Assembly: GCA_046881885.1 (NCBI GenBank)
Contig: JBKSMP010000024.1
Span: 96,744 to 128,743 of the forward strand
Source of the DNA: Opitutales bacterium
Lineage (GTDB): Bacteria > Verrucomicrobiota > Verrucomicrobiia > Opitutales > UBA9783
Direction of reading: 5' to 3'
DNA length: 32,000 nt
Positions 10,321 to 31,914 of the stretch are shown here, piece by piece. How positions within the stretch are numbered: position 1 is the stretch's first letter; the number at the start of each line of letters is the position of its first letter. A program made the translations under genes and the position numbers. The notes under the pieces were generated by a model, which had not been told where the DNA came from, ran no database searches, and saw only the letters and a list, made by a program, of their open reading frames with translations.

Positions 10321-10429
10321 AATCCATTATCCAAGCGACTTCTTTACAGTTTTGCAATCTTCTTCTACAAAAATATCAAAGCCCCACAAATAGTATCTGC
10401 AGGGCCCTTTCTAGATTTAAAGTAAAAAC

Positions 10430-11080
10430 TTAAAATTGATAACGCAAACCAAACTCGAGCGAATGCATATACGGCGTCTTGAGCGGCTTGATATCAGCAT
10501 TAAAATCTTTATGCGCAAAGGTTACGGTTTCTGTCTTCATGCAACGATACCCCATGGTCAACATCCAATTAGAACTGATTTCATAGGATACACCTGCCAT
10601 AAGCTGACCAGCAAACGCATATTTGACTAAATCGTAGTTTGCATTAAACATAGCATTTTCATAAAAATGATACTTCAATCGTACAAGACCACAGCCAGCA
10701 CCGACATAAAAAGAAACCTGATCTTGCAATTTAAAATCATAATATACATTCAACATGGAAGACAAAGCTGTAAAACGTGCATTTTGACAATCATCACCAC
10801 CATGATTAAAAATCGTAGCATAATGCTTTGCCGCACGATCTTTCACTTCTTTATTTTCGTATTGAATAATACCCAACTGAAATCCCAAACGCCAATTATC
10901 ATATTGGATACCAATTTCGCCATTCAAAAGCGGTGCGCTTTTGTAAGAAACCCCATCCTTTTTCTGAGGAACACAATAGCCTGCTTTTAATTCAACATAC
11001 TTACGAAAGGCATTATCTGCATGCAAACAACTCGCACAAACACCTACGAACAACCCAATTACTTTTGTACTTACTTTCAT
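10430..11080 (-). CDS. Small outer-membrane beta-barrel protein (OmpA-like/OMP_b-brl type, 8-strand class)
   Basis: The signal peptide is MKVSTKVIGLFVGVCASCLHA/DNA. The body shows alternating amphipathic beta-strand patterning with aromatic girdles, and the terminal sequence GLRYQF ends in Phe. The mature part contains four Cys. Confidence 0.72.
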   Translation of the reverse strand: MKVSTKVIGLFVGVCASCLHADNAFRKYVELKAGYCVPQKKDGVSYKSAPLLNGEIGIQYDNWRLGFQLGIIQYENKEVKDRAAKHYATIFNHGGDDCQNARFTALSSMLNVYYDFKLQDQVSFYVGAGCGLVRLKYHFYENAMFNANYDLVKYAFAGQLMAGVSYEISSNWMLTMGYRCMKTETVTFAHKDFNADIKPLKTPYMHSLEFGLRYQF

Positions 11081-11177
11081 TTAAAAAAATATTCTCAGAT
11101 AAGAATCACACAACAAACAGCACAAAGTCAAGCCATCATTACATGAATTTTATTCAATTTCACCTAAAATCAAAAAT

Positions 11178-11265
11178 TCCGAACACAAACAGCAGGCCGC
11201 CTAATGGAAACTGCCCGACCTCACAATCGGGCAGTAATGTTTTTTTGTCAAATCTTTTATTTATT
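11178..11265 (-). repeat. Copy A of an 88-nt conserved 3'-end module (last two codons, TAA, hairpin and a conserved distal block)
   Basis: 80 of 88 positions are identical to 11964-12051 by my hand alignment. Four of the eight differences fall in the hairpin loop. Confidence 0.9.
11211..11234 (-). terminator. GC-rich hairpin downstream of the 223-aa paralog (candidate intrinsic terminator)
   Basis: CTGCCCGA-cctcacaa-TCGGGCAG forms an 8-bp stem. On the gene-sense strand it is followed only by TTT. On the opposite strand it is followed, after 5 nt, by T7. Confidence 0.5.
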
Positions 11266-11928
11266 ACTTTGCTCAGACATAAGCACATCAAAATCAGATT
11301 GTAACCTTGGAGGTATTTGATTTCGATTCGTGTATAATTGACTTGGTGTAATTTTATTTGCTCTTATTAATCTAGTAGCTGCATTTTTTTTCCCAGGTGT
11401 CGCCGTTCTTTGTATATAATCAAAAATCTGCTGACCAGTAACCCCCTTAGGCTTTCTTGCTTCTTTTTCACGGCGTCTTTGCTCCTCTGCTTGTGCCGCC
11501 TTGCATACTTTACAGGTTTGCCCCATATCCAAAACTTGAACAAGATCACATAAAATTGTTACTTCCGATAACAAACGATCGCATTTTTCCAACAAAGCGC
11601 GATAAACCCTATCCGCATTCAACGGATCCACTTCTAACGTACCCGTATCGGTCGTCCTAACAGCCAATTCCTGCTTCAAAGTCCGACAATGGTGACGATT
11701 CCTTACACCTCGTAAGCGCTGGGCCTCTAGCTCATGCTCCTGTACAAACGCCTCCTCTACATCACTATCCCAATTATCAACTTCAAATTCATCTAAACGC
11801 AATTTCAAAGTTTCCACAGGGCATTGGCCGATCTTGTGATCCATCCCACAAACGTCACAAAAATCTCCCCACAAAAGCCCTTGCAAACCCAAACCTAAAC
11901 CGATACATTTGAACACACTACTCTTCAT
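11257..11928 (-). CDS. Hypothetical protein (~223 aa) with two CxxC motifs and a C-terminal module shared with the upstream 797-aa protein
   Basis: ATG 11928 (MKSSVFKCIGLGLGLQGLLWG...) has AAGGAAA ~9 nt upstream and is preferred to the TTG at 11955. The C-terminal ~80 aa align with the C-terminus of ORF 12043-14436 (AEEQRRRE-EARKPKG-TGQQ...TP.KK..A.R..RA..I.P...Y...NK*). Confidence 0.7.
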   Translation of the reverse strand: MKSSVFKCIGLGLGLQGLLWGDFCDVCGMDHKIGQCPVETLKLRLDEFEVDNWDSDVEEAFVQEHELEAQRLRGVRNRHHCRTLKQELAVRTTDTGTLEVDPLNADRVYRALLEKCDRLLSEVTILCDLVQVLDMGQTCKVCKAAQAEEQRRREKEARKPKGVTGQQIFDYIQRTATPGKKNAATRLIRANKITPSQLYTNRNQIPPRLQSDFDVLMSEQSNK

Positions 11929-11963
11929 ATTATCATTTTCCTTTCTTTTAATCAAACAAACGC

Positions 11964-12051
11964 TCCGAACACAAACAGCAGGCCGCCTAATGCAAACTGC
12001 CCGACTTGATAGTCGGGCAGCAATGGTTTTTTGTCAAATTTTTTATTTATT
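11964..12051 (-). repeat. Copy B of the 88-nt conserved 3'-end module
   Basis: 80 of 88 positions are identical to 11178-11265. It sits at the same position relative to the stop codon of its gene. Confidence 0.9.
11997..12020 (-). terminator. GC-rich hairpin downstream of the 797-aa paralog (candidate intrinsic terminator)
   Basis: CTGCCCGAC-ttgata-GTCGGGCAG forms a 9-bp stem. The stem is conserved with copy A while the loop differs. Confidence 0.5.
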
Positions 12052-14436
12052 TTCTTTTTCTAAACTCTTAAAAGCTTCATGAAAAAATGGATCTAGTTGA
12101 CTCAAACTTAAATAAGTTGTACCAGGCTGTATTCTTTGGGCTCGCACCGCTCGATTGGCAAGCATACTTTTTTTAGGCGTACCATGCTGCACGACATAAT
12201 TTACCAGTTGTTGTCCCGTAAACCCCTTAGGCTTTCTAGCTTCTTCTTCACGGCGTCTTTGCTCCTCTGCTGCAAGACGTCTACGTTCTGCCTCTTCGCG
12301 CTCAAGACGTTCTCTCTCCAGGCGCTGCTGTTCCGCCAACTTCCGCTGTTCTTCTTCTCTGCGCTTACGCTCCTCCTCGGCTTTCCTTTTCTGCTCTGCC
12401 TCTTCCTTAGCTTTACGTTCCGCTTCTTTTTGCTGTCGGCTAAGCTCCGCTTGACGTTTTTGTTCTGCCTCTAATCTTTCGTTTTCCTCTTCCAATAAAA
12501 GCTCTACCCCTCGAACCATATCCATATCCAGCTCTGCCACATCTGATTCCCGCTGCTTTAGCAACACATCCATCGACGCTTCTATTCTTTGCTGATTAAC
12601 AATATTTTTCGATCTTTGCTTTAAAAACATATACTTTTCATCCAACTTACCGTAAATCGCCTTCTTTTTCCTCTGAAAATGACTTACATCCAACAATTCA
12701 AAACATTCTTTCTTCTCATTGTAATCTAAAAACATCGGCTCTGGAAACCGACATTCCTGCCGAGACACAAAATTCTGAAGCGCTTTAAACAAAAGCTCAT
12801 CTGTAGCAAAAACATACACTTTAATTTCTAATTGTTGCTTTTGATTTTCTGGACTGATCGAATCTTTAATACAAAGAAACTTATCTCCTATCCCTGATCG
12901 ACCTAAAGAATAATTTGTCAAAACATGCTGCACCTCTGCATTTTTTTCTTTCAAACAAGATTTCCACAACAAACCATAAAATATATTTTTTAAACTACGC
13001 GGACTAAGATACAAAGCTATTGATTTTTCATCTTTTTTGCCGTTTTCAAGAAACTTCTGCCCCGTTGCTTGACATAAATCTTCACTAATTAACGCATTAA
13101 AAGAAGGTTTTAATACTTTACTATTTAAAACACAGGAAGCATTTAACTGCTGCAACATAGACACTTTAATTTCCTTTAAAAAATAAAATTTATTATCTTC
13201 TATTTGCGGATATAAAGAAATCTCTTCTTCCTTTCCATTATCCCAAAAAATTGATTTTTTATTGTAAAGACATACAGAAAAAGCTGTTAAATCAACATTC
13301 TTATTTTCCATACTTTCCAAGGACAAAAAACAACTTTCCAAGGACAAAAAACAATATATCTCTGGAATAACCACCTTACCTTCTCTTTTTTCTGCAGAAA
13401 AGAAAATAAATTTATTTAACGAACCATCGTTCAAAGAAGGAAACCGATCTAAATAAGTAGAAGCTGATTGTAAAAGCTTCAATTTTTTTTCCCCCCCAAA
13501 AAAATGTTGTAAAGCAAAAGCACAAGCCTTTTTATTTGCATAGATATCTTTATCCAATTTATCAAAAGAATCAATTTCTTCCTTTGGGCTCAGCTCAACA
13601 CGATGCGAATCATTTAATAATTCATAAAAACATTCCTTCAATTTGGATTTGTAACCTTCCGGAAAAATTCTCAATATACCCTGCAAAGGATCTTTAAATT
13701 TACAATAAAAATTTTTAATGGAAAGTTCATCAAATTGTTGCATATAAAAAACTAACAAATTTTTCAATATTTGTTGTAAGGGAAGCAAAACACCTAACTG
13801 ATTACTTAAGTTTTCTACCGCTATTAAACTAATAAGTACATTTATACAATTTTTGTAAACTTGATCATTCGCAAAATCATCTACATCTTCGTTTACAAAC
13901 AATCTAAAACAATGCTTTGCTAAATTTTCATTAAATTCTTCATTTTTACTTAAACTTACAATTTCTGCCTTATGTTTTTTTATAAAATCTTTAAACAAAT
14001 CCTCTTTTTTCTTATAAAATGTACTTTTAATTAAAGTCTTGCCTTCTGCATCTAAAACGTCACTAAAATTGTAAAAATAGCTTTCATCAAAATTCAAAGT
14101 TGCTGACTGAACACTAAGATGCTGTATATTATACACTAAAAACCTAGCCAAAACCTTTTGAAGATTTGCTAAAATTTCATATTCTAATGCATCTGTTTTT
14201 CCTCTTTCTAAAATCTGTTTTATCTCCTTTGCTGTTTGAGAATAACGATCTTCTTCATCTTGCAAACCAAACAAAGAAAAACAATTCTTAATATCATCTT
14301 CTCGAAAACTCTTTTTTTTACTCAAATCTTTTATTGTTTGTATATTTTTCTCATTCAAAAGACGATCCGCCTTTACCGCGCTTAACGAAAAAGCAATAAA
14401 AACAAAACACTTAACAATACTATAAATTTTATGCAT
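12043..14436 (-). CDS. Hypothetical exported protein (797 aa): signal peptide, AT-rich K/N/F/L-rich region, E/R/K charged coiled-coil, shared basic C-terminal module
   Basis: The start is ATG. The signal peptide is MHKIYSIVKCFVFIAFSLSAVKA/DRL. Residues ~647-730 are almost pure E/R/K/Q/A heptad-like sequence. The last ~67 aa are homologous to the C-terminus of ORF 11257-11928. Confidence 0.8.
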   Translation of the reverse strand: MHKIYSIVKCFVFIAFSLSAVKADRLLNEKNIQTIKDLSKKKSFREDDIKNCFSLFGLQDEEDRYSQTAKEIKQILERGKTDALEYEILANLQKVLARFLVYNIQHLSVQSATLNFDESYFYNFSDVLDAEGKTLIKSTFYKKKEDLFKDFIKKHKAEIVSLSKNEEFNENLAKHCFRLFVNEDVDDFANDQVYKNCINVLISLIAVENLSNQLGVLLPLQQILKNLLVFYMQQFDELSIKNFYCKFKDPLQGILRIFPEGYKSKLKECFYELLNDSHRVELSPKEEIDSFDKLDKDIYANKKACAFALQHFFGGEKKLKLLQSASTYLDRFPSLNDGSLNKFIFFSAEKREGKVVIPEIYCFLSLESCFLSLESMENKNVDLTAFSVCLYNKKSIFWDNGKEEEISLYPQIEDNKFYFLKEIKVSMLQQLNASCVLNSKVLKPSFNALISEDLCQATGQKFLENGKKDEKSIALYLSPRSLKNIFYGLLWKSCLKEKNAEVQHVLTNYSLGRSGIGDKFLCIKDSISPENQKQQLEIKVYVFATDELLFKALQNFVSRQECRFPEPMFLDYNEKKECFELLDVSHFQRKKKAIYGKLDEKYMFLKQRSKNIVNQQRIEASMDVLLKQRESDVAELDMDMVRGVELLLEEENERLEAEQKRQAELSRQQKEAERKAKEEAEQKRKAEEERKRREEEQRKLAEQQRLERERLEREEAERRRLAAEEQRRREEEARKPKGFTGQQLVNYVVQHGTPKKSMLANRAVRAQRIQPGTTYLSLSQLDPFFHEAFKSLEKENK
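13313..13354 (-). repeat. Perfect 21-bp tandem duplication inside the 797-aa CDS
   Basis: CTTTCCAAGGACAAAAAACAA occurs twice back to back (13313-13333 and 13334-13354). It encodes CFLSLES-CFLSLES in frame. Confidence 0.95.
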
Positions 14437-14525
14437 GGAACAAAAGTGATTCCCAAACTACTAAATGTCAACACAATTTAACAAAAAATAATACCTACAC
14501 TTATCCCAAAATTAATTTTACCAAA

Positions 14526-15981: not shown

Positions 15982-16068
15982 TGGTGGTGGGGGAGCGATT
16001 CGAACGCTCGAAAGGGAAACCCTGACAGATTTACAGTCTGCATCCTTTAGCCACTTGGATACCCCACC
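15982..16068 (-). tRNA. tRNA-Tyr (anticodon GTA), class II with long variable arm, CCA encoded
   Basis: The reverse complement folds as acceptor GGTGGGG/CCCCACC, anticodon stem GCAGA/TCTGT with loop CT-GTA-AA, a long variable arm, T arm GAGCG-TTCGAAT-CGCTC, discriminator A and CCA. Confidence 0.93.
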
Positions 16069-29861: not shown

Positions 29862-29976
29862 AACTATTTATAATAAACACTCTTTTCAACAATAATGCAA
29901 GCTTGTTTGTTAGCTTTTTAACACTTTATCGGTATGAATTCTTGACTTTAACAAAGAATTATCGTACCGTTAAATC

Positions 29977-30213
29977 ATGGCAGTAAAAGAAAATAAAATC
30001 TCAGAAAACGTTAGAGGAAAATTTTACGTAGACAATCAATGCATCTCTTGTGGACTTTGTCGCGAAATTGCACCCGAAATTTTTGGAAGCGTAAGCGATA
30101 CAGACGCATCCTTTGTTAAAAAGCAACCTTCGACGGAAAACGAGGTCGAGCTTTGCATGGAAGCCTTAGAAAGCTGCCCTGTAGACGCTATCGGTCAAGA
30201 TGGTGACCAATAA
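29977..30213 (+). CDS. Small single-cluster ferredoxin
   Basis: The 78-aa product has C-I-S-C-G-L-C ... C-P (CxxCxxC...CP) cluster ligands. Confidence 0.8.
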   Translation: MAVKENKISENVRGKFYVDNQCISCGLCREIAPEIFGSVSDTDASFVKKQPSTENEVELCMEALESCPVDAIGQDGDQ

Positions 30214-30235
30214 TTATCATCAATAGAATTTACTC

Positions 30236-30270
30236 AAATCCCTGCTTTAGAAAGTAGGGATTTTTATTTT
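30236..30270 (+). terminator. Rho-independent terminator of the ferredoxin gene
   Basis: AAATCCCTGC-tttagaaa-GTAGGGATTT forms a 10-bp stem with one G-U pair. It runs directly into TTTTTATTTT. Confidence 0.62.
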
Positions 30271-30478
30271 AAAAACATTTCAATCCCCATCTAGCTTTCC
30301 TCCGCTCCAATATACATTTTCACACGCAACCTCATTGCATAACAAAACACCCAATTTTTAATTTTCCACTCAATTTAGCAACACCCTAACTAAAAAACCA
30401 TTGTTTTTAGATTGCATTTTATGCTTGCTTCAGCTATCAAATAGTCAAAATAAAGAAATACATTCAAAAAAAGATTAA

Positions 30479-30778
30479 ATGTTGGACACAGAGGACTTAA
30501 ATTATTCATTTTTTGAAAAGTTGCTACCCGACCAGAAAGAATGGTACACCGTCAAGGAAGCGGCGGCCATACTTGGACGGAGCGATCAATATGTACGAGA
30601 TTGTTTTGACAATCAAAAATTACTAGGCCATGTTTGGAATGCGAAAGCTAAAAGAGGACAAGAAAAAAGAAGGACCTATCACATTTCTCGACAAAGTCTT
30701 GTTTTATTTTTTATGGAAACCGCTAACTATCGTGCTAGTGATTTTTTGCAACGTATTCGTAATGCCGAAAAACATTAA
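30479..30778 (+). CDS. Small helix-turn-helix DNA-binding protein (excisionase/MerR-like HTH)
   Basis: The 99-aa product contains WYTVKEAAAILGRSDQYVRDCFDNQKLLG, which is the typical [YL]-T-V-K-E-A-A-x-x-L-G-x-S HTH of the excisionase-family DNA-binding domain. Confidence 0.6.
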   Translation: MLDTEDLNYSFFEKLLPDQKEWYTVKEAAAILGRSDQYVRDCFDNQKLLGHVWNAKAKRGQEKRRTYHISRQSLVLFFMETANYRASDFLQRIRNAEKH

Positions 30779-30845
30779 ACAAATGTGTTTTTTCAAAAAA
30801 TTTGCTTGTGTTTTTACGGAATGCAAGTGATAGTAGTTACATATT

Positions 30846-31214
30846 ATGTTGAATTTTTTGATAATTGTTGGATCTATTCTATTAGTTGGCTTGTGCGCAT
30901 GGATTATTTTGCTCATTTTAATGCAAAAACCAAGCGCTAATGCAGGCATGGGAGCAGCTTTAGGAGGAGGCGCAGCAGAATCTGCTTTCGGAGGTGAAGC
31001 TTCTAATGTTTTGACACGTTGGACGGTTTTCGGAGTTATTGGATTTTTCACCCTCACGCTTTTCCTGACATTAGCCCAAGTTTACAACCATCACAAAAAC
31101 ACAGCGACAACTGAATTAGTTCCCGTTATTGAAAAGCAAGAAGCGAGCTCTTTAACGCAAATACCAAGCGAGAAGTCAGAAAACGCTGTTGCTCATGAGG
31201 CAAGCAATAAGTAA
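30846..31214 (+). CDS. secG: Preprotein translocase subunit SecG (with C-terminal extension)
   Basis: The protein has two TM helices flanking the Gly-rich loop (QKPSANAGMGAALGGGAAESAFGGEASNVLTRWT). Confidence 0.85.
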   Translation: MLNFLIIVGSILLVGLCAWIILLILMQKPSANAGMGAALGGGAAESAFGGEASNVLTRWTVFGVIGFFTLTLFLTLAQVYNHHKNTATTELVPVIEKQEASSLTQIPSEKSENAVAHEASNK

Positions 31215-31251
31215 TCACAGCATTTTTTTTATAATAAATTGTTTCGTACAC

Positions 31252-31914
31252 ATGGCTGTGTGCGAAAAGTTTATTTTTGAAGACCCAGAACGATTATTTG
31301 GCATTACAGAACGCATTTGTGCTCTAAAAACATATACTCCAAACGAAAATTATTGTTGGCATCTAGAATGGAAAGTTGACAAACAAAGCTATTCAGGACG
31401 CTTGACAGGAAACGTAGAAGGCTCACATCATTGGATTAACATTGTGTTCCCAGATCAAACAACGCTCTTTTTTGACAAAAACAATCCTCAACAAGCTTTT
31501 TACCCCCATCGCCTCTGTCCTTTACCGCAAGAACGTTGGCAAGAACCTTTAGGCGGACTTCCTTCCGTTTCTTATGAACTTATTGCCATGCCGTTTTTAA
31601 ACGACACCGTTATTTCCGTTAAAAAAACAGCTAAACAAGGACGAAAAGCCTTAGAAGTAGATTTTAAACGCGAAAACCATATCTCTACTAAAGCTTTTCT
31701 AGATTTAAAATTTAACACAATTTTAGAAGTTCAAGCACATTCAACCCATCCTACTGGCAAATTCCAATTAAAAAGCTTAAAAAAATTCAACGGCATTTGG
31801 GGACTTCATCAAGCCGTATTCTCGCAAGGGAAAAAAACCACAAAGCTAAAAATAACTTCAATAGGGTTCCTGCAAAAGTCGGAGATGAAAAACTTTGGTA
31901 TGCCGCATGAATAA
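31252..31914 (+). CDS. Hypothetical protein (~220 aa)
   Basis: The frame is uninterrupted with ordinary composition, and I recognise no motif. The start is ambiguous between ATG 31252 and ATG 31195, which overlaps the secG end. Confidence 0.55.
   Translation: MAVCEKFIFEDPERLFGITERICALKTYTPNENYCWHLEWKVDKQSYSGRLTGNVEGSHHWINIVFPDQTTLFFDKNNPQQAFYPHRLCPLPQERWQEPLGGLPSVSYELIAMPFLNDTVISVKKTAKQGRKALEVDFKRENHISTKAFLDLKFNTILEVQAHSTHPTGKFQLKSLKKFNGIWGLHQAVFSQGKKTTKLKITSIGFLQKSEMKNFGMPHE

Follow-up and report, generated by a model that had tools for sequence, protein, structure and literature searches.

A terminator-like hairpin with an invariant TTGACA-containing block flanks two tandem paralogs with hypervariable C-termini in gut Opitutales

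The 3'-UTR-derived small RNAs of enterobacteria (CpxQ, DapZ and SroC types) carry a conserved single-stranded stretch directly 5' of the terminator hairpin of their own mRNA. The module analyzed here shares this anatomy, an 18-nt invariant unpaired block followed by a covarying hairpin, although it comes from another phylum and has no sequence or Rfam relationship to these RNAs. With REP/BIME elements it has in common the form of a short extragenic palindrome past stop codons but, unlike them, it is neither dispersed nor high-copy, being specific to a single locus. To our knowledge, hardly any gene-expression signals have been characterised in Verrucomicrobiota, above all in uncultured gut members of the Opitutales, and our literature search for Verrucomicrobia promoters returned nothing relevant.

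A precedent for a conserved element beside an exchanged gene segment is the Sma/Cla repeat, found at the 3' end of the Neisseria pilE/pilS loci (PMC4023411). As in that system, a conserved non-coding sequence of ~60 bp is located immediately 3' of gene copies with a recombining variable coding segment. On the other hand, the two elements are unrelated in sequence, our module displays RNA-type covariation and has only a putative role in recombination, and the paralogs form an expressed tandem pair, with no division into a single expression locus and many silent cassettes. The main features of the window (the whole 32-kb stretch of DNA analyzed) that are relevant to this comparison are as follows.

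12043..14436, minus strand: large paralog, 797 aa, not assignable to any real Pfam family
11257..11928, minus strand: small paralog, 223 aa, clade-restricted, no Pfam family
10430..11080, minus strand: outer-membrane beta-barrel (OMP) gene 3' of module copy A (PF13505, E = 3.4e-14)
11986..12043, minus strand: module core, copy B (covariance model R1, 85.1 bits), 3' of the large and 5' of the small paralog
11200..11257, minus strand: module core, copy A (covariance model R1, 81.0 bits; aligned with 16 other copies), 3' of the small paralog and 5' of the OMP gene
11964..11992, minus strand: distal 29-nt block of copy B, identical to that of copy A in this genome, not conserved among relatives
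11178..11206, minus strand: distal 29-nt block of copy A, identical to that of copy B in this genome, not conserved among relatives

Extent and distribution of the duplicated module

The original prediction of an 88-nt module duplicated at the 3' ends of both paralogs was confirmed by a gap-free alignment of positions 11178-11265 and 11964-12051 (80/88 identical; differences at 11207, 11220, 11222, 11224, 11226, 11235, 11240 and 11254), which a repeat search extended to 98 nt (11168-11265 vs 11954-12051, 88%). Each copy begins at the last codons and the stop codon of a gene on the minus strand, which is the small paralog in one case and the large paralog in the other. The module is indeed, as had been proposed, better conserved than the adjacent coding sequence, where upstream identity between the paralogs is 96% over the first 45 nt (the anchor) and then only 51-60%. 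The main cause of this difference had, however, been missed: the module outscores its coding neighbourhood because it borders a hypervariable cassette, made up of the last ~55 codons, which the paralogs exchange (see below).

Comparison of 17 copies from about ten related metagenomic strains limits the constrained part to the proximal ~58 nt in gene sense. Read on the minus strand of the window, this core is made of an A-rich sequence, ATTTGACAAAAAACCATT, an 11-bp GC-rich hairpin with a 4-nt loop, and UUU(G/C)CAUUA, i.e. of the invariant block ATTTGACAAAAAACCATT, the hairpin and UUUGCAUUA. Short direct repeats, CCATTA/GCATTA, flank the palindrome. The distal 29-mer (TCCGAACACAAACAGCAGGCCGCCTAATG), with exactly two occurrences in the window vs 0 expected (100 shuffles), had been described as a perfectly conserved block. 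This holds within the present genome, but in four copies from relatives (L002_dn, L006_dn, L006_up and L021_up) the block is replaced or contains indels, with a mean identity there of 0.48-0.57. Judging from these alignments, its identity in this genome reflects a local, lineage-specific homogenisation and not function. A candidate second hairpin in the distal block was rejected, as RNAalifold retained only the first hairpin and the block is unalignable in four copies.

A covariance search with the R1 model and all filters off detected only the two copies in the 32-kb window. Among 185,579 GTDB species genomes, strict and degenerate patterns matched one contig (L007), which belongs to the same clade, and the exact 29-mer had no match; the pattern also gave no match in viral contigs or in the first scan of JGI metagenomes. 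A looser JGI pattern returned 11 loci (L010-L020), all lacking the hairpin and dismissed as chance matches. In every related strain recovered, the core was found 3' of both tandem paralogs, always at the same two positions. The original prediction would have been at odds with a high-copy REP-like repeat scattered over unrelated loci, and the element proved to be locus-specific and not REP-like. A REP, MITE-like or other mobile palindromic repeat inserted twice would account for an extragenic palindrome with short flanking direct repeats. Against it stand the two copies of the unfiltered search, the single GTDB contig of the same clade, the constancy of both positions in all strains and the absence of the hairpin from JGI pattern matches elsewhere; this explanation is already largely refuted, and we consider it extremely improbable.

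The best Rfam scores on the locus were 18-22 bits as compared to gathering scores of 47-49 (E > 3); across the window no family reached its gathering score, and the flank of L004 gave only sub-threshold noise. An integron attC-like reading, based on the resemblance of GCCTAAT to RYYYAAC, was discarded for want of an inverted partner. Other intergenic regions of the clade are also well conserved, with 95% column identity in the OMP-ProS spacer; therefore, conservation alone is not exceptional for the module.

Structure and strand of the hairpin

The two strongest stem-loops in the window are those of the module.

11210..11235, minus strand: hairpin A, sense RNA ACUGCCCGAUU-GUGA-GGUCGGGCAGU, 11 bp including two U·G, dG -17.9 sense and -15.3 antisense
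11996..12021, minus strand: hairpin B, sense RNA GCUGCCCGACU-AUCA-AGUCGGGCAGU, 11 bp, dG -20.2

Selection on RNA structure, originally proposed from the differences between the two copies, was corroborated by 95.8% pairing of stem cells over 15 copies (vs 18-47% with the partner slid), by compensatory changes at two pairs (G-C to A-U at one and C-G to U-A at the other) and by a variable loop. Two of the four differences that had been ascribed to the loop (11220 and 11226) are in fact stem positions paired as U·G, the sense stem having 11 bp and the loop 4 nt. Over 17 copies the stem contains 22 G·U cells as opposed to 2 A·C cells and therefore folds in the gene-sense RNA rather than in the antisense; the sense dG ranges from -12.7 to -20.3 kcal/mol, and most copies fold less stably as antisense. 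What is preserved is a hairpin of the sense RNA that reads out of the upstream paralog.

The polarity of the element had been regarded as odd, the hairpin being followed by TTT in gene sense and, after 4-5 nt, by T7 or T6 on the plus strand. The G·U to A·C ratio and the mostly weaker antisense fold settle it for the gene-sense strand, and they equally disfavour the antisense small RNA or antisense terminator that had been among the options. In fact, a plus-strand terminator or antisense RNA formed by the hairpin and the T6-T7 run is called by the terminator scan at both copies, and the scan calls them on that strand only, since the sense tail UUU(G/C)CAUUA falls short of its threshold of at least 5 T in 8. 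However, the T run begins 4-5 nt past the stem, there is no plus-strand gene upstream, and each of the 22 G·U cells becomes an A·C mismatch on the plus strand, with an antisense dG of only -8.6 to -13 kcal/mol in many copies. We therefore find this alternative hardly credible.

As in an intrinsic (Rho-independent) terminator, a GC-rich 11-bp stem with a tetraloop is placed just past the stop codon (at a distance of 4-15 nt in each case) and followed by U residues; the module is on the sense strand, its stem covaries and its loop is free to vary. The sense tail scores 2.3-3.2, like other putative terminators of the clade (1.1-3.2). In contrast to a typical intrinsic terminator, the U tract is limited to UUU, with G or C and AUUA making up the rest of a mixed U-rich tail, which speaks against termination, and the stem is preceded by an 18-nt invariant block that termination would not need. 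Overall, the hairpin probably works in the sense RNA as a terminator or as a 3' stabiliser.

Among other structures considered, a candidate long-range helix between the A-tract and a downstream UUUUG has both sides either invariant or shifted among copies, and an ACCAUUA/UAAUGGU pairing is restricted to the variant of L002_dn and L006_dn. A -1 ribosomal frameshift signal (A AAA AAC, spacer, hairpin) was rejected: the heptamer comes after the stop in all copies, which also differ in the frame it has with respect to the coding sequence.

The invariant block and its TTGACA box

The block that precedes the stem includes a -35-like hexamer, which has a counterpart in front of the large paralog.

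11236..11253, minus strand: invariant 5' block of copy A, ATTTGACAAAAAAACATT, with little or no variation among 15 aligned copies; TTGACA at 11246-11251
12022..12039, minus strand: invariant 5' block of copy B, ATTTGACAAAAAACCATT; TTGACA at 12032-12037
14466..14471, minus strand: TTGACA box of the large paralog, ~35 nt before the ATG, conserved in L024 and L025, with the same TTGACA-17-nAnnnT geometry as the module

The perfect gene-sense TTGACA that had been noticed just after each stop codon is present in both copies and is kept in 16 of the 17 copies across relatives, the sole change of the hexamer being TTTACA in L024_dn. Four-fold sites of the window genome and of L002 have an identity of only 0.59-0.68, and yet the longer string ATTTGACAAAA..CCATT shows little or no change among 15 copies, drawn from lineages with small proteins of 55-87% identity. 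By this measure, the 18-nt block ahead of the hairpin is under strong sequence-specific constraint.

The box resembles a sigma-70 promoter (TTGACA-17-TATAAT) in its perfect, conserved -35 element, in the optimal spacing of 17 nt (16 in L007_up) to a -10-like hexamer nAnnnT, in the invariance of A2 and T6 and in the geometry shared with the box of the large paralog, where TTGACA is followed at the same spacing by CACTTT or CAGGTT and, 6-7 nt later, by the ATG; another gene carries TTGACT-17-TAGAAT-6-ATG. It differs from such a promoter in that the -10 candidate (GACTAT, GATTGT, AACCAT, GATCGT, GACCAT or GACTGT, with only A2 and T6 invariant) is located inside the hairpin stem-loop, the invariant A in the stem and the invariant T at loop position 2 while the remaining loop positions vary, and in that the spacer is invariant as well. 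A weak -10 (3/6 match to TATAAT, below the threshold of the promoter scan, which does not call it) argues against a promoter, and a promoter would leave the invariance of the spacer AAAAAACCATT unexplained. Readings as ECF or sigma-54 promoters were rejected, as neither spacing nor motifs fit. The small paralog is SD-led, and its 114-nt intergenic region contains no other promoter-like sequence. In L004, the module is preceded by unrelated sequence ending in a canonical terminator, homology to the window starts exactly at the 5' edge of the module, and no further promoter candidate is seen for the small gene. Taken together, the case for the TTGACA block being a promoter is nearly balanced, with a slight tilt to the negative.

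The best explanation that we can offer, tentatively and at somewhat less than even confidence, is a compact terminator-like hairpin overlapping a TTGACA-17-nAnnnT promoter of the next gene and also providing the 3' homology arm of a cassette exchange. The hairpin with its short U-rich tail would terminate, or stabilise the 3' end of, the mRNA of the upstream paralog; TTGACA and nAnnnT would make up a sigma-70-type promoter embedded in the same DNA, from which the next gene would be transcribed anew, starting ~35 nt downstream of TTGACA within the 3' arm of the stem. Since a transcript from the embedded promoter would exclude the hairpin, two overlapping functions have to be assumed. The promoter of copy B would serve the small paralog, and that of copy A would be a second, upstream promoter of the OMP gene; the latter has its own conserved TTGAC box ~60 nt before the ATG, so the copy A promoter would be partly redundant. 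A terminator and/or regulatory cassette reused between genes, as first suggested, thus remains the best class of explanation, except for its antisense variants, which the G·U vs A·C cells disfavour.

A simpler alternative is a plain intrinsic terminator or 3'-end stabiliser, duplicated along with the gene 3' end and kept alike by gene conversion. Here TTGACA would have no promoter role, and the block might be an A-tract or upstream context that aids termination, or might be conserved for another cause. The sense-strand specificity and position of the hairpin, the similar UUUGAUAUUUUU tails of other terminators in the clade, the evident concerted evolution of the 3' ends and the weak -10 are all consistent with it. 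On the other hand, termination requires no 18-nt invariant sequence 5' of the stem, lineages at about 35% neutral divergence share an invariance that conversion inside a single genome cannot account for, and in L004 the module persists directly behind another, canonical terminator. We regard this alternative as unlikely, albeit deserving consideration.

The constraint on the entire 18-nt block, spacer included, would be accounted for by a 3'-UTR-derived small RNA or cis-regulatory RNA, with UUUGACAAAAAACCAUU as a seed or (A-rich) protein-binding region and the hairpin and UUU as its terminator; two near-identical small RNAs would then be released from the two paralog mRNAs. The anatomy of known 3'-UTR small RNAs fits, with an invariant single-stranded stretch followed, on the sense strand, by a covarying terminator stem with a variable loop. 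However, a search of the 32-kb window for sites complementary to the invariant block at up to 3 mismatches found no target, there is no Rfam match and no identifiable 5'-end signal, and the A-rich seed is of low complexity, all of which makes such an RNA a rather improbable explanation.

Exchange of C-terminal cassettes between the paralogs

The paralogs form a clade-specific, signal-peptide-bearing pair, the last ~55 codons of which are hypervariable and preceded by a conserved coding anchor.

11260..11415, minus strand: C-terminal cassette of the small paralog, type S1, hypervariable
11416..11491, minus strand: coding anchor EEQRRRExEARKPKGxTGQQ of the small paralog (repeat family D2, 84%), 5' homology arm of the cassette
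12046..12195, minus strand: C-terminal cassette of the large paralog, type L, hypervariable
12196..12271, minus strand: coding anchor of the large paralog, its first 45 nt being those 96% identical between the paralogs

Across strains, the two slots exchange cassettes of at least four types (L, S1, S2 and S3), chimeras included, although some of the mosaic contigs are ~1 kb long and could be assembly chimeras. On long contigs, orthologous slots differ in their cassette, e.g. S2 occupies the large gene of L024 and the small gene of L002. The conservation profile is 0.56-0.65 in the cassette vs 0.80-0.90 in the core. These strain comparisons identify the core, at the level of sequence, as the place where the hypervariable C-terminal cassette, exchanged between the two genes, has its fixed 3' limit. 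Moreover, AAACATTTGACA, found 5' of TTGACA, follows S2 in both L024_up and L002_dn, i.e. the bases at this place travel with the cassette, and the sequence 3' of the hairpin goes with the slot; therefore, breakpoints fall inside the core. Within our preferred explanation (hairpin, overlapping promoter and homology arm), crossovers would resolve in two arms, the anchor and the core, because both are conserved while the intervening cassette is not. Such crossovers would homogenise the module and, in this lineage, also the distal 29-nt block.

The same observations can be read, by analogy with the Neisseria Sma/Cla repeat (PMC4023411), as pointing to an element that is primarily recombinational, its core being selected as a 3' homology arm or as a protein-bound enhancer of cassette exchange. 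The shuffling of at least four cassette types, with chimeras, and the breakpoints inside the core would be in line with this role. In contrast, each locus has just two copies, and a search for silent cassettes found none in the window, in L002 or in L024; wobble-tolerant covariation favours an RNA or single-strand structure over a duplex DNA site; and any conserved flank could act as a homology arm without selection for that role. We rate this reading as quite unlikely. A bolder version, in which the core serves gut Opitutales as the dedicated cis element of a two-slot system for exchanging C-terminal cassettes, its 18-nt block and hairpin (as RNA or ssDNA) being recognised to direct or license tail swapping, or else is the source of a 3'-UTR small RNA coupling both genes, also appears improbable.

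For comparative work, the locus is a clean case in which a sense-strand terminator-like hairpin is fused to a conserved TTGACA box. Of greater importance, the element led to a pair of paralogs with hypervariable tails exchanged between fixed flanks and with a homopolymer off-switch, a G3A8 (frameshift) tract in the small gene that turns this gene off in some strains, a combination typical of loci of host interaction or surface variation. Should the module be no more than a terminator/promoter junction, this would be an ordinary finding; if the exchange-element or small-RNA reading is true, then together with the G3A8 tract it would make the locus a variation system of a kind not described before, acting on a secreted or surface protein of Verrucomicrobiota.

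Outside the clade, an exhaustive phmmer search with the L cassette produced only weak repeat matches (a YDG-domain giant protein and a 425-aa protein), which were judged not meaningful, and a profile search with the cassette alignment A8 had one 42-aa fragment as its sole match. A Foldseek comparison of the small-protein model with the PDB returned nothing with E < 2; the AF2 model itself contains a confident C-terminal helical domain (pLDDT about 89).

The module and its distribution

The module stands 3' of the first two of three tandem genes:
12043-14436, minus strand, 797-aa protein (large paralog), first
11257-11928, minus strand, 223-aa protein (small paralog), second
10430-11080, minus strand, outer-membrane beta-barrel protein (OMP gene), third

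A direct repeat follows the stop codons of both paralogs (11168-11265 versus 11954-12051, 88% over 98 nt), and its hairpins are the two strongest stem-loops of the 32-kb window. The 80/88 identity originally reported between the copies in an 88-nt frame was reproduced, as was a shared 29-mer, present twice in the window with 0 occurrences expected. Pfam held no fitting family for the large or the small paralog. An 'Opitutales bacterium' MAG encodes a hypothetical protein identical to the small protein, and only ~10 relatives, all metagenomic, were found among 5.8 billion proteins. We retrieved the contigs of relatives (L002-L009 and L021-L025) for comparison; the module is present after both paralogs in every one long enough to cover the position. 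Several contigs terminate within the module, as expected of an assembly-breaking repeat. Ends at or inside it recur in the clade (L005, L009, L022, L023, L025), consistent with a near-identical repeat that assemblers fail to bridge.

Against the high-copy scattered repeat that the original prediction had named as a risk, a search without filters using a covariance model of the ~58-nt conserved core (R1) found the module exactly twice in the 32-kb window, and nowhere beyond the expected module positions in the related loci. A strict degenerate pattern matched 1 contig, of the same clade, among 185,579 GTDB species genomes and had no match in viral contigs. Matches to the pattern in JGI data were rejected as further copies, the hairpin being missing. 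Rfam also has no family matching the module. A REP-like element is thus rejected, and the module is locus-specific.

The conserved core and its hairpin

The module alignment comprises 15 copies, and two further copies from contig L024 were inspected. In gene sense (window minus strand) the core runs from an A-rich stretch through ATTTGACAAAAAACCATT to an 11-bp stem, a 4-nt loop, the return stem and UUU(G/C)CAUUA. The 18-nt block shows little or no variation; by comparison, the window genome matches L002 at only 59-68% of four-fold degenerate sites, and small-protein identity in the other lineages is 55-87%. Since further intergenic regions of the clade are likewise well conserved, conservation by itself is not unusual here, and the informative feature is the pattern inside the module. 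A 3'-UTR-derived sRNA with the 18-nt block as its seed may be an alternative, less likely explanation of the module.

The distal 29-nt block does not hold up as a conserved functional part. It is perfectly identical in the window genome and its close relatives L004 and L007. In four copies (L002_dn, L006_dn, L006_up, L021_up) the distal part including it has given way to unrelated sequence or carries indels, and nowhere in the intergenic region is identity lower (0.48-0.57). The perfect identity is thus lineage-specific homogenisation and provides no evidence of function.

RNAalifold retained a single hairpin in the module. Its stem cells are paired in 95.8% of cases (versus 18-47% with the partners slid), double changes occur at two stem pairs, and the observed covariation score was reached by only 3 of 500 shuffles, in agreement with the proposed selection on RNA structure. 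The stem cells of 17 copies comprise 157 Watson-Crick, 22 G·U and 2 A·C combinations, the wobble variants being distributed over 7 of the 11 stem pairs. Strand-symmetric mutation would give equal numbers of G·U and A·C; the bias shows that the structure is under selection in the gene-sense strand, whether as RNA or, conceivably, as single-stranded DNA. The sense fold is at least as stable as the antisense fold in all copies but one (e.g. -18.3 versus -8.6 kcal/mol). This resolves the odd polarity previously read as possibly antisense, the plus-strand T run being simply the complement of the conserved A tract in the 18-nt block.

Exchange of the adjoining cassettes

Both paralogs share a coding anchor, EEARKPKGxTGQQ (96% identity over 45 nt), beyond which ~55 codons are only 51-60% identical. 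The module is indeed better conserved than this adjoining sequence (80/88), whose poorer conservation reflects a hypervariable tail after the shared anchor. Across strains, at least four types of tail occur (L, S1, S2, S3), found in both gene slots in all combinations. The sites compared correspond to 11260-11415 (small paralog) and 12046-12195 (large paralog) of the window, in loci L002-L008 and L021-L024, and include chimeric cassettes.

Tail types by locus
window: large paralog L; small paralog S1
L023: large paralog S1; small paralog L
L007, L024: large paralog S2; small paralog S1
L002, L022: large paralog L/S1 chimera; small paralog S2
L008: large paralog S3; small paralog L
L005, L006: large paralog L; small paralog L
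L021: large paralog S3

Some ~1-kb contigs are possibly strain chimeras; the long ones suffice to show non-orthologous cassettes in orthologous slots. The S2 tails of L024 (8.4 kb) and L002 (5.7 kb) are 89% identical yet lie in different genes. A six-genome conservation profile gave 0.83-0.94 for the small gene's N-terminal part, 0.56-0.65 for the cassette and 0.80-0.90 for the module core, so that the module marks the 3' edge of a hypervariable cassette that is exchanged. The bases just 5' of TTGACA go with the cassette (S2 is followed by AAACATTTGACA in L024_up as well as L002_dn) and the sequence 3' of the hairpin goes with the slot, which suggests that crossovers resolve within the core. 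No silent cassettes were found in the window, L002 or L024. A less likely alternative is that the module is a selected recombination element analogous to Sma/Cla, a 66-bp repeat that lies 3' of pilE in Neisseria (PMC4023411). Overall, the cassette-shuffling locus is a more unusual result than the module that delimits it.

Several observations concern the paralogs themselves. The small paralog has a G3A8 tract at 11384-11394 (minus-strand sense CCTGGGAAAAAAAATG), one base shorter in L007 (L007:911-930, G3A7), L021 (L021:876-895, G2A8) and L024 (L024:6356-6375, G2A8). Shortening truncates the protein to 208-211 aa, but in the -1 frame the ORF of the downstream cassette remains intact. It occurred as two independent events, making phase variation or transcriptional/ribosomal slippage a candidate. 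A variable-length Glu/Arg/Lys-rich coiled-coil insert near 11492 (alignment columns 209-267), similar to the large paralog's repeat region, distinguishes small-protein orthologues of 223 and 265-266 aa. In L009, a 318-aa ORF (L009:288-1244) joins a CotJA-like N-terminus of higher GC to the large paralog's coiled-coil region, anchor and S2 cassette; the contig stops at TTGACA, and the ORF is probably a chimeric assembly. When the L-type cassette was searched exhaustively, P0016 (2102 aa, E = 4.5e-7), a giant repeat protein with a YDG domain, and the unannotated P0017 (425 aa, E = 1.4e-4) matched weakly over several stretches, probably as compositional or repeat noise.

Promoter-like features and a possible mechanism

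TTGACA is invariant except for TTTACA in one copy, and is followed 17 nt downstream (16 in one copy) by a hexamer nAnnnT, of which the A (a stem position) and the T (loop position 2) are invariant and the remaining three loop positions variable. TTGACA-17-CACTTT (CAGGTT in L024) also precedes the large paralog, with ATG 6-7 nt on, conserved in three lineages, and another window gene has TTGACT-17-TAGAAT-6-ATG; this genome thus seems to use -35 boxes of the TTGACA type together with weak -10 elements, and a leaderless geometry. Several genes with promoter-like boxes at 14436-14471, 2920-2957 and 10321-10345 (examples being TTGACA-17-CACTTT-6-ATG, TTGACT-17-TAGAAT-6-ATG, and GATAAT-5-ATG before proS) have a predicted start at or adjoining the ATG and no SD, and leaderless mRNAs may be common in the organism. 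The small paralog has a purine-rich SD, and its 114-nt upstream region contains no promoter-like sequence besides the module. In L004 the large paralog is missing upstream, and homology to the window begins exactly at the 5' edge of the module, directly preceded by unrelated sequence whose last element is a canonical terminator bearing a long U tract; here the module would be the sole candidate source of small-gene transcription. This replacing segment (L004:1-123, terminator AAAACAACCAACCgagtGGGTTGGTTGTTTGTTTATTTTT) is apparently non-coding, has no Rfam match and may reflect a deletion or rearrangement, or else represent a third module context.

Against a promoter, the -10 candidate matches only 3 of 6 positions and the promoter scan makes no call, the invariant spacer is unaccounted for, and a conserved TTGAC box of its own precedes the OMP gene. 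A plain terminator, its conserved context left unexplained, may be another, less likely alternative. In stem, position, strand and -35 hexamer, the module behaves as would an intrinsic terminator with an overlapping promoter of the sigma-70 type; its U tail is short and its -10 match partial.

The comparison establishes that the hairpin is under selection for its structure on the sense strand, that the block upstream of it is invariant, and that the two copies are locus-specific and border the exchanged cassette on its 3' side. On the preferred, terminator-promoter reading, the hairpin and short U-rich tail would terminate or stabilise the mRNA of the upstream paralog, the embedded TTGACA-17-nAnnnT would restart transcription for the next gene, and the anchor and core would act as homology arms of cassette exchange, accounting for local homogenisation.

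Elsewhere in the window, ARAGORN placed a tRNA-Tyr at 15982-16068; at the gathering threshold, no Rfam family was listed anywhere in the window, the tRNA family included. A 1.3-kb stretch without a long ORF on the gene map (29862-31188) is associated with two good terminator-like plus-strand hairpins (30236-30263 and 31242-31267), along with TTGACA boxes at positions 30606 and 31011.
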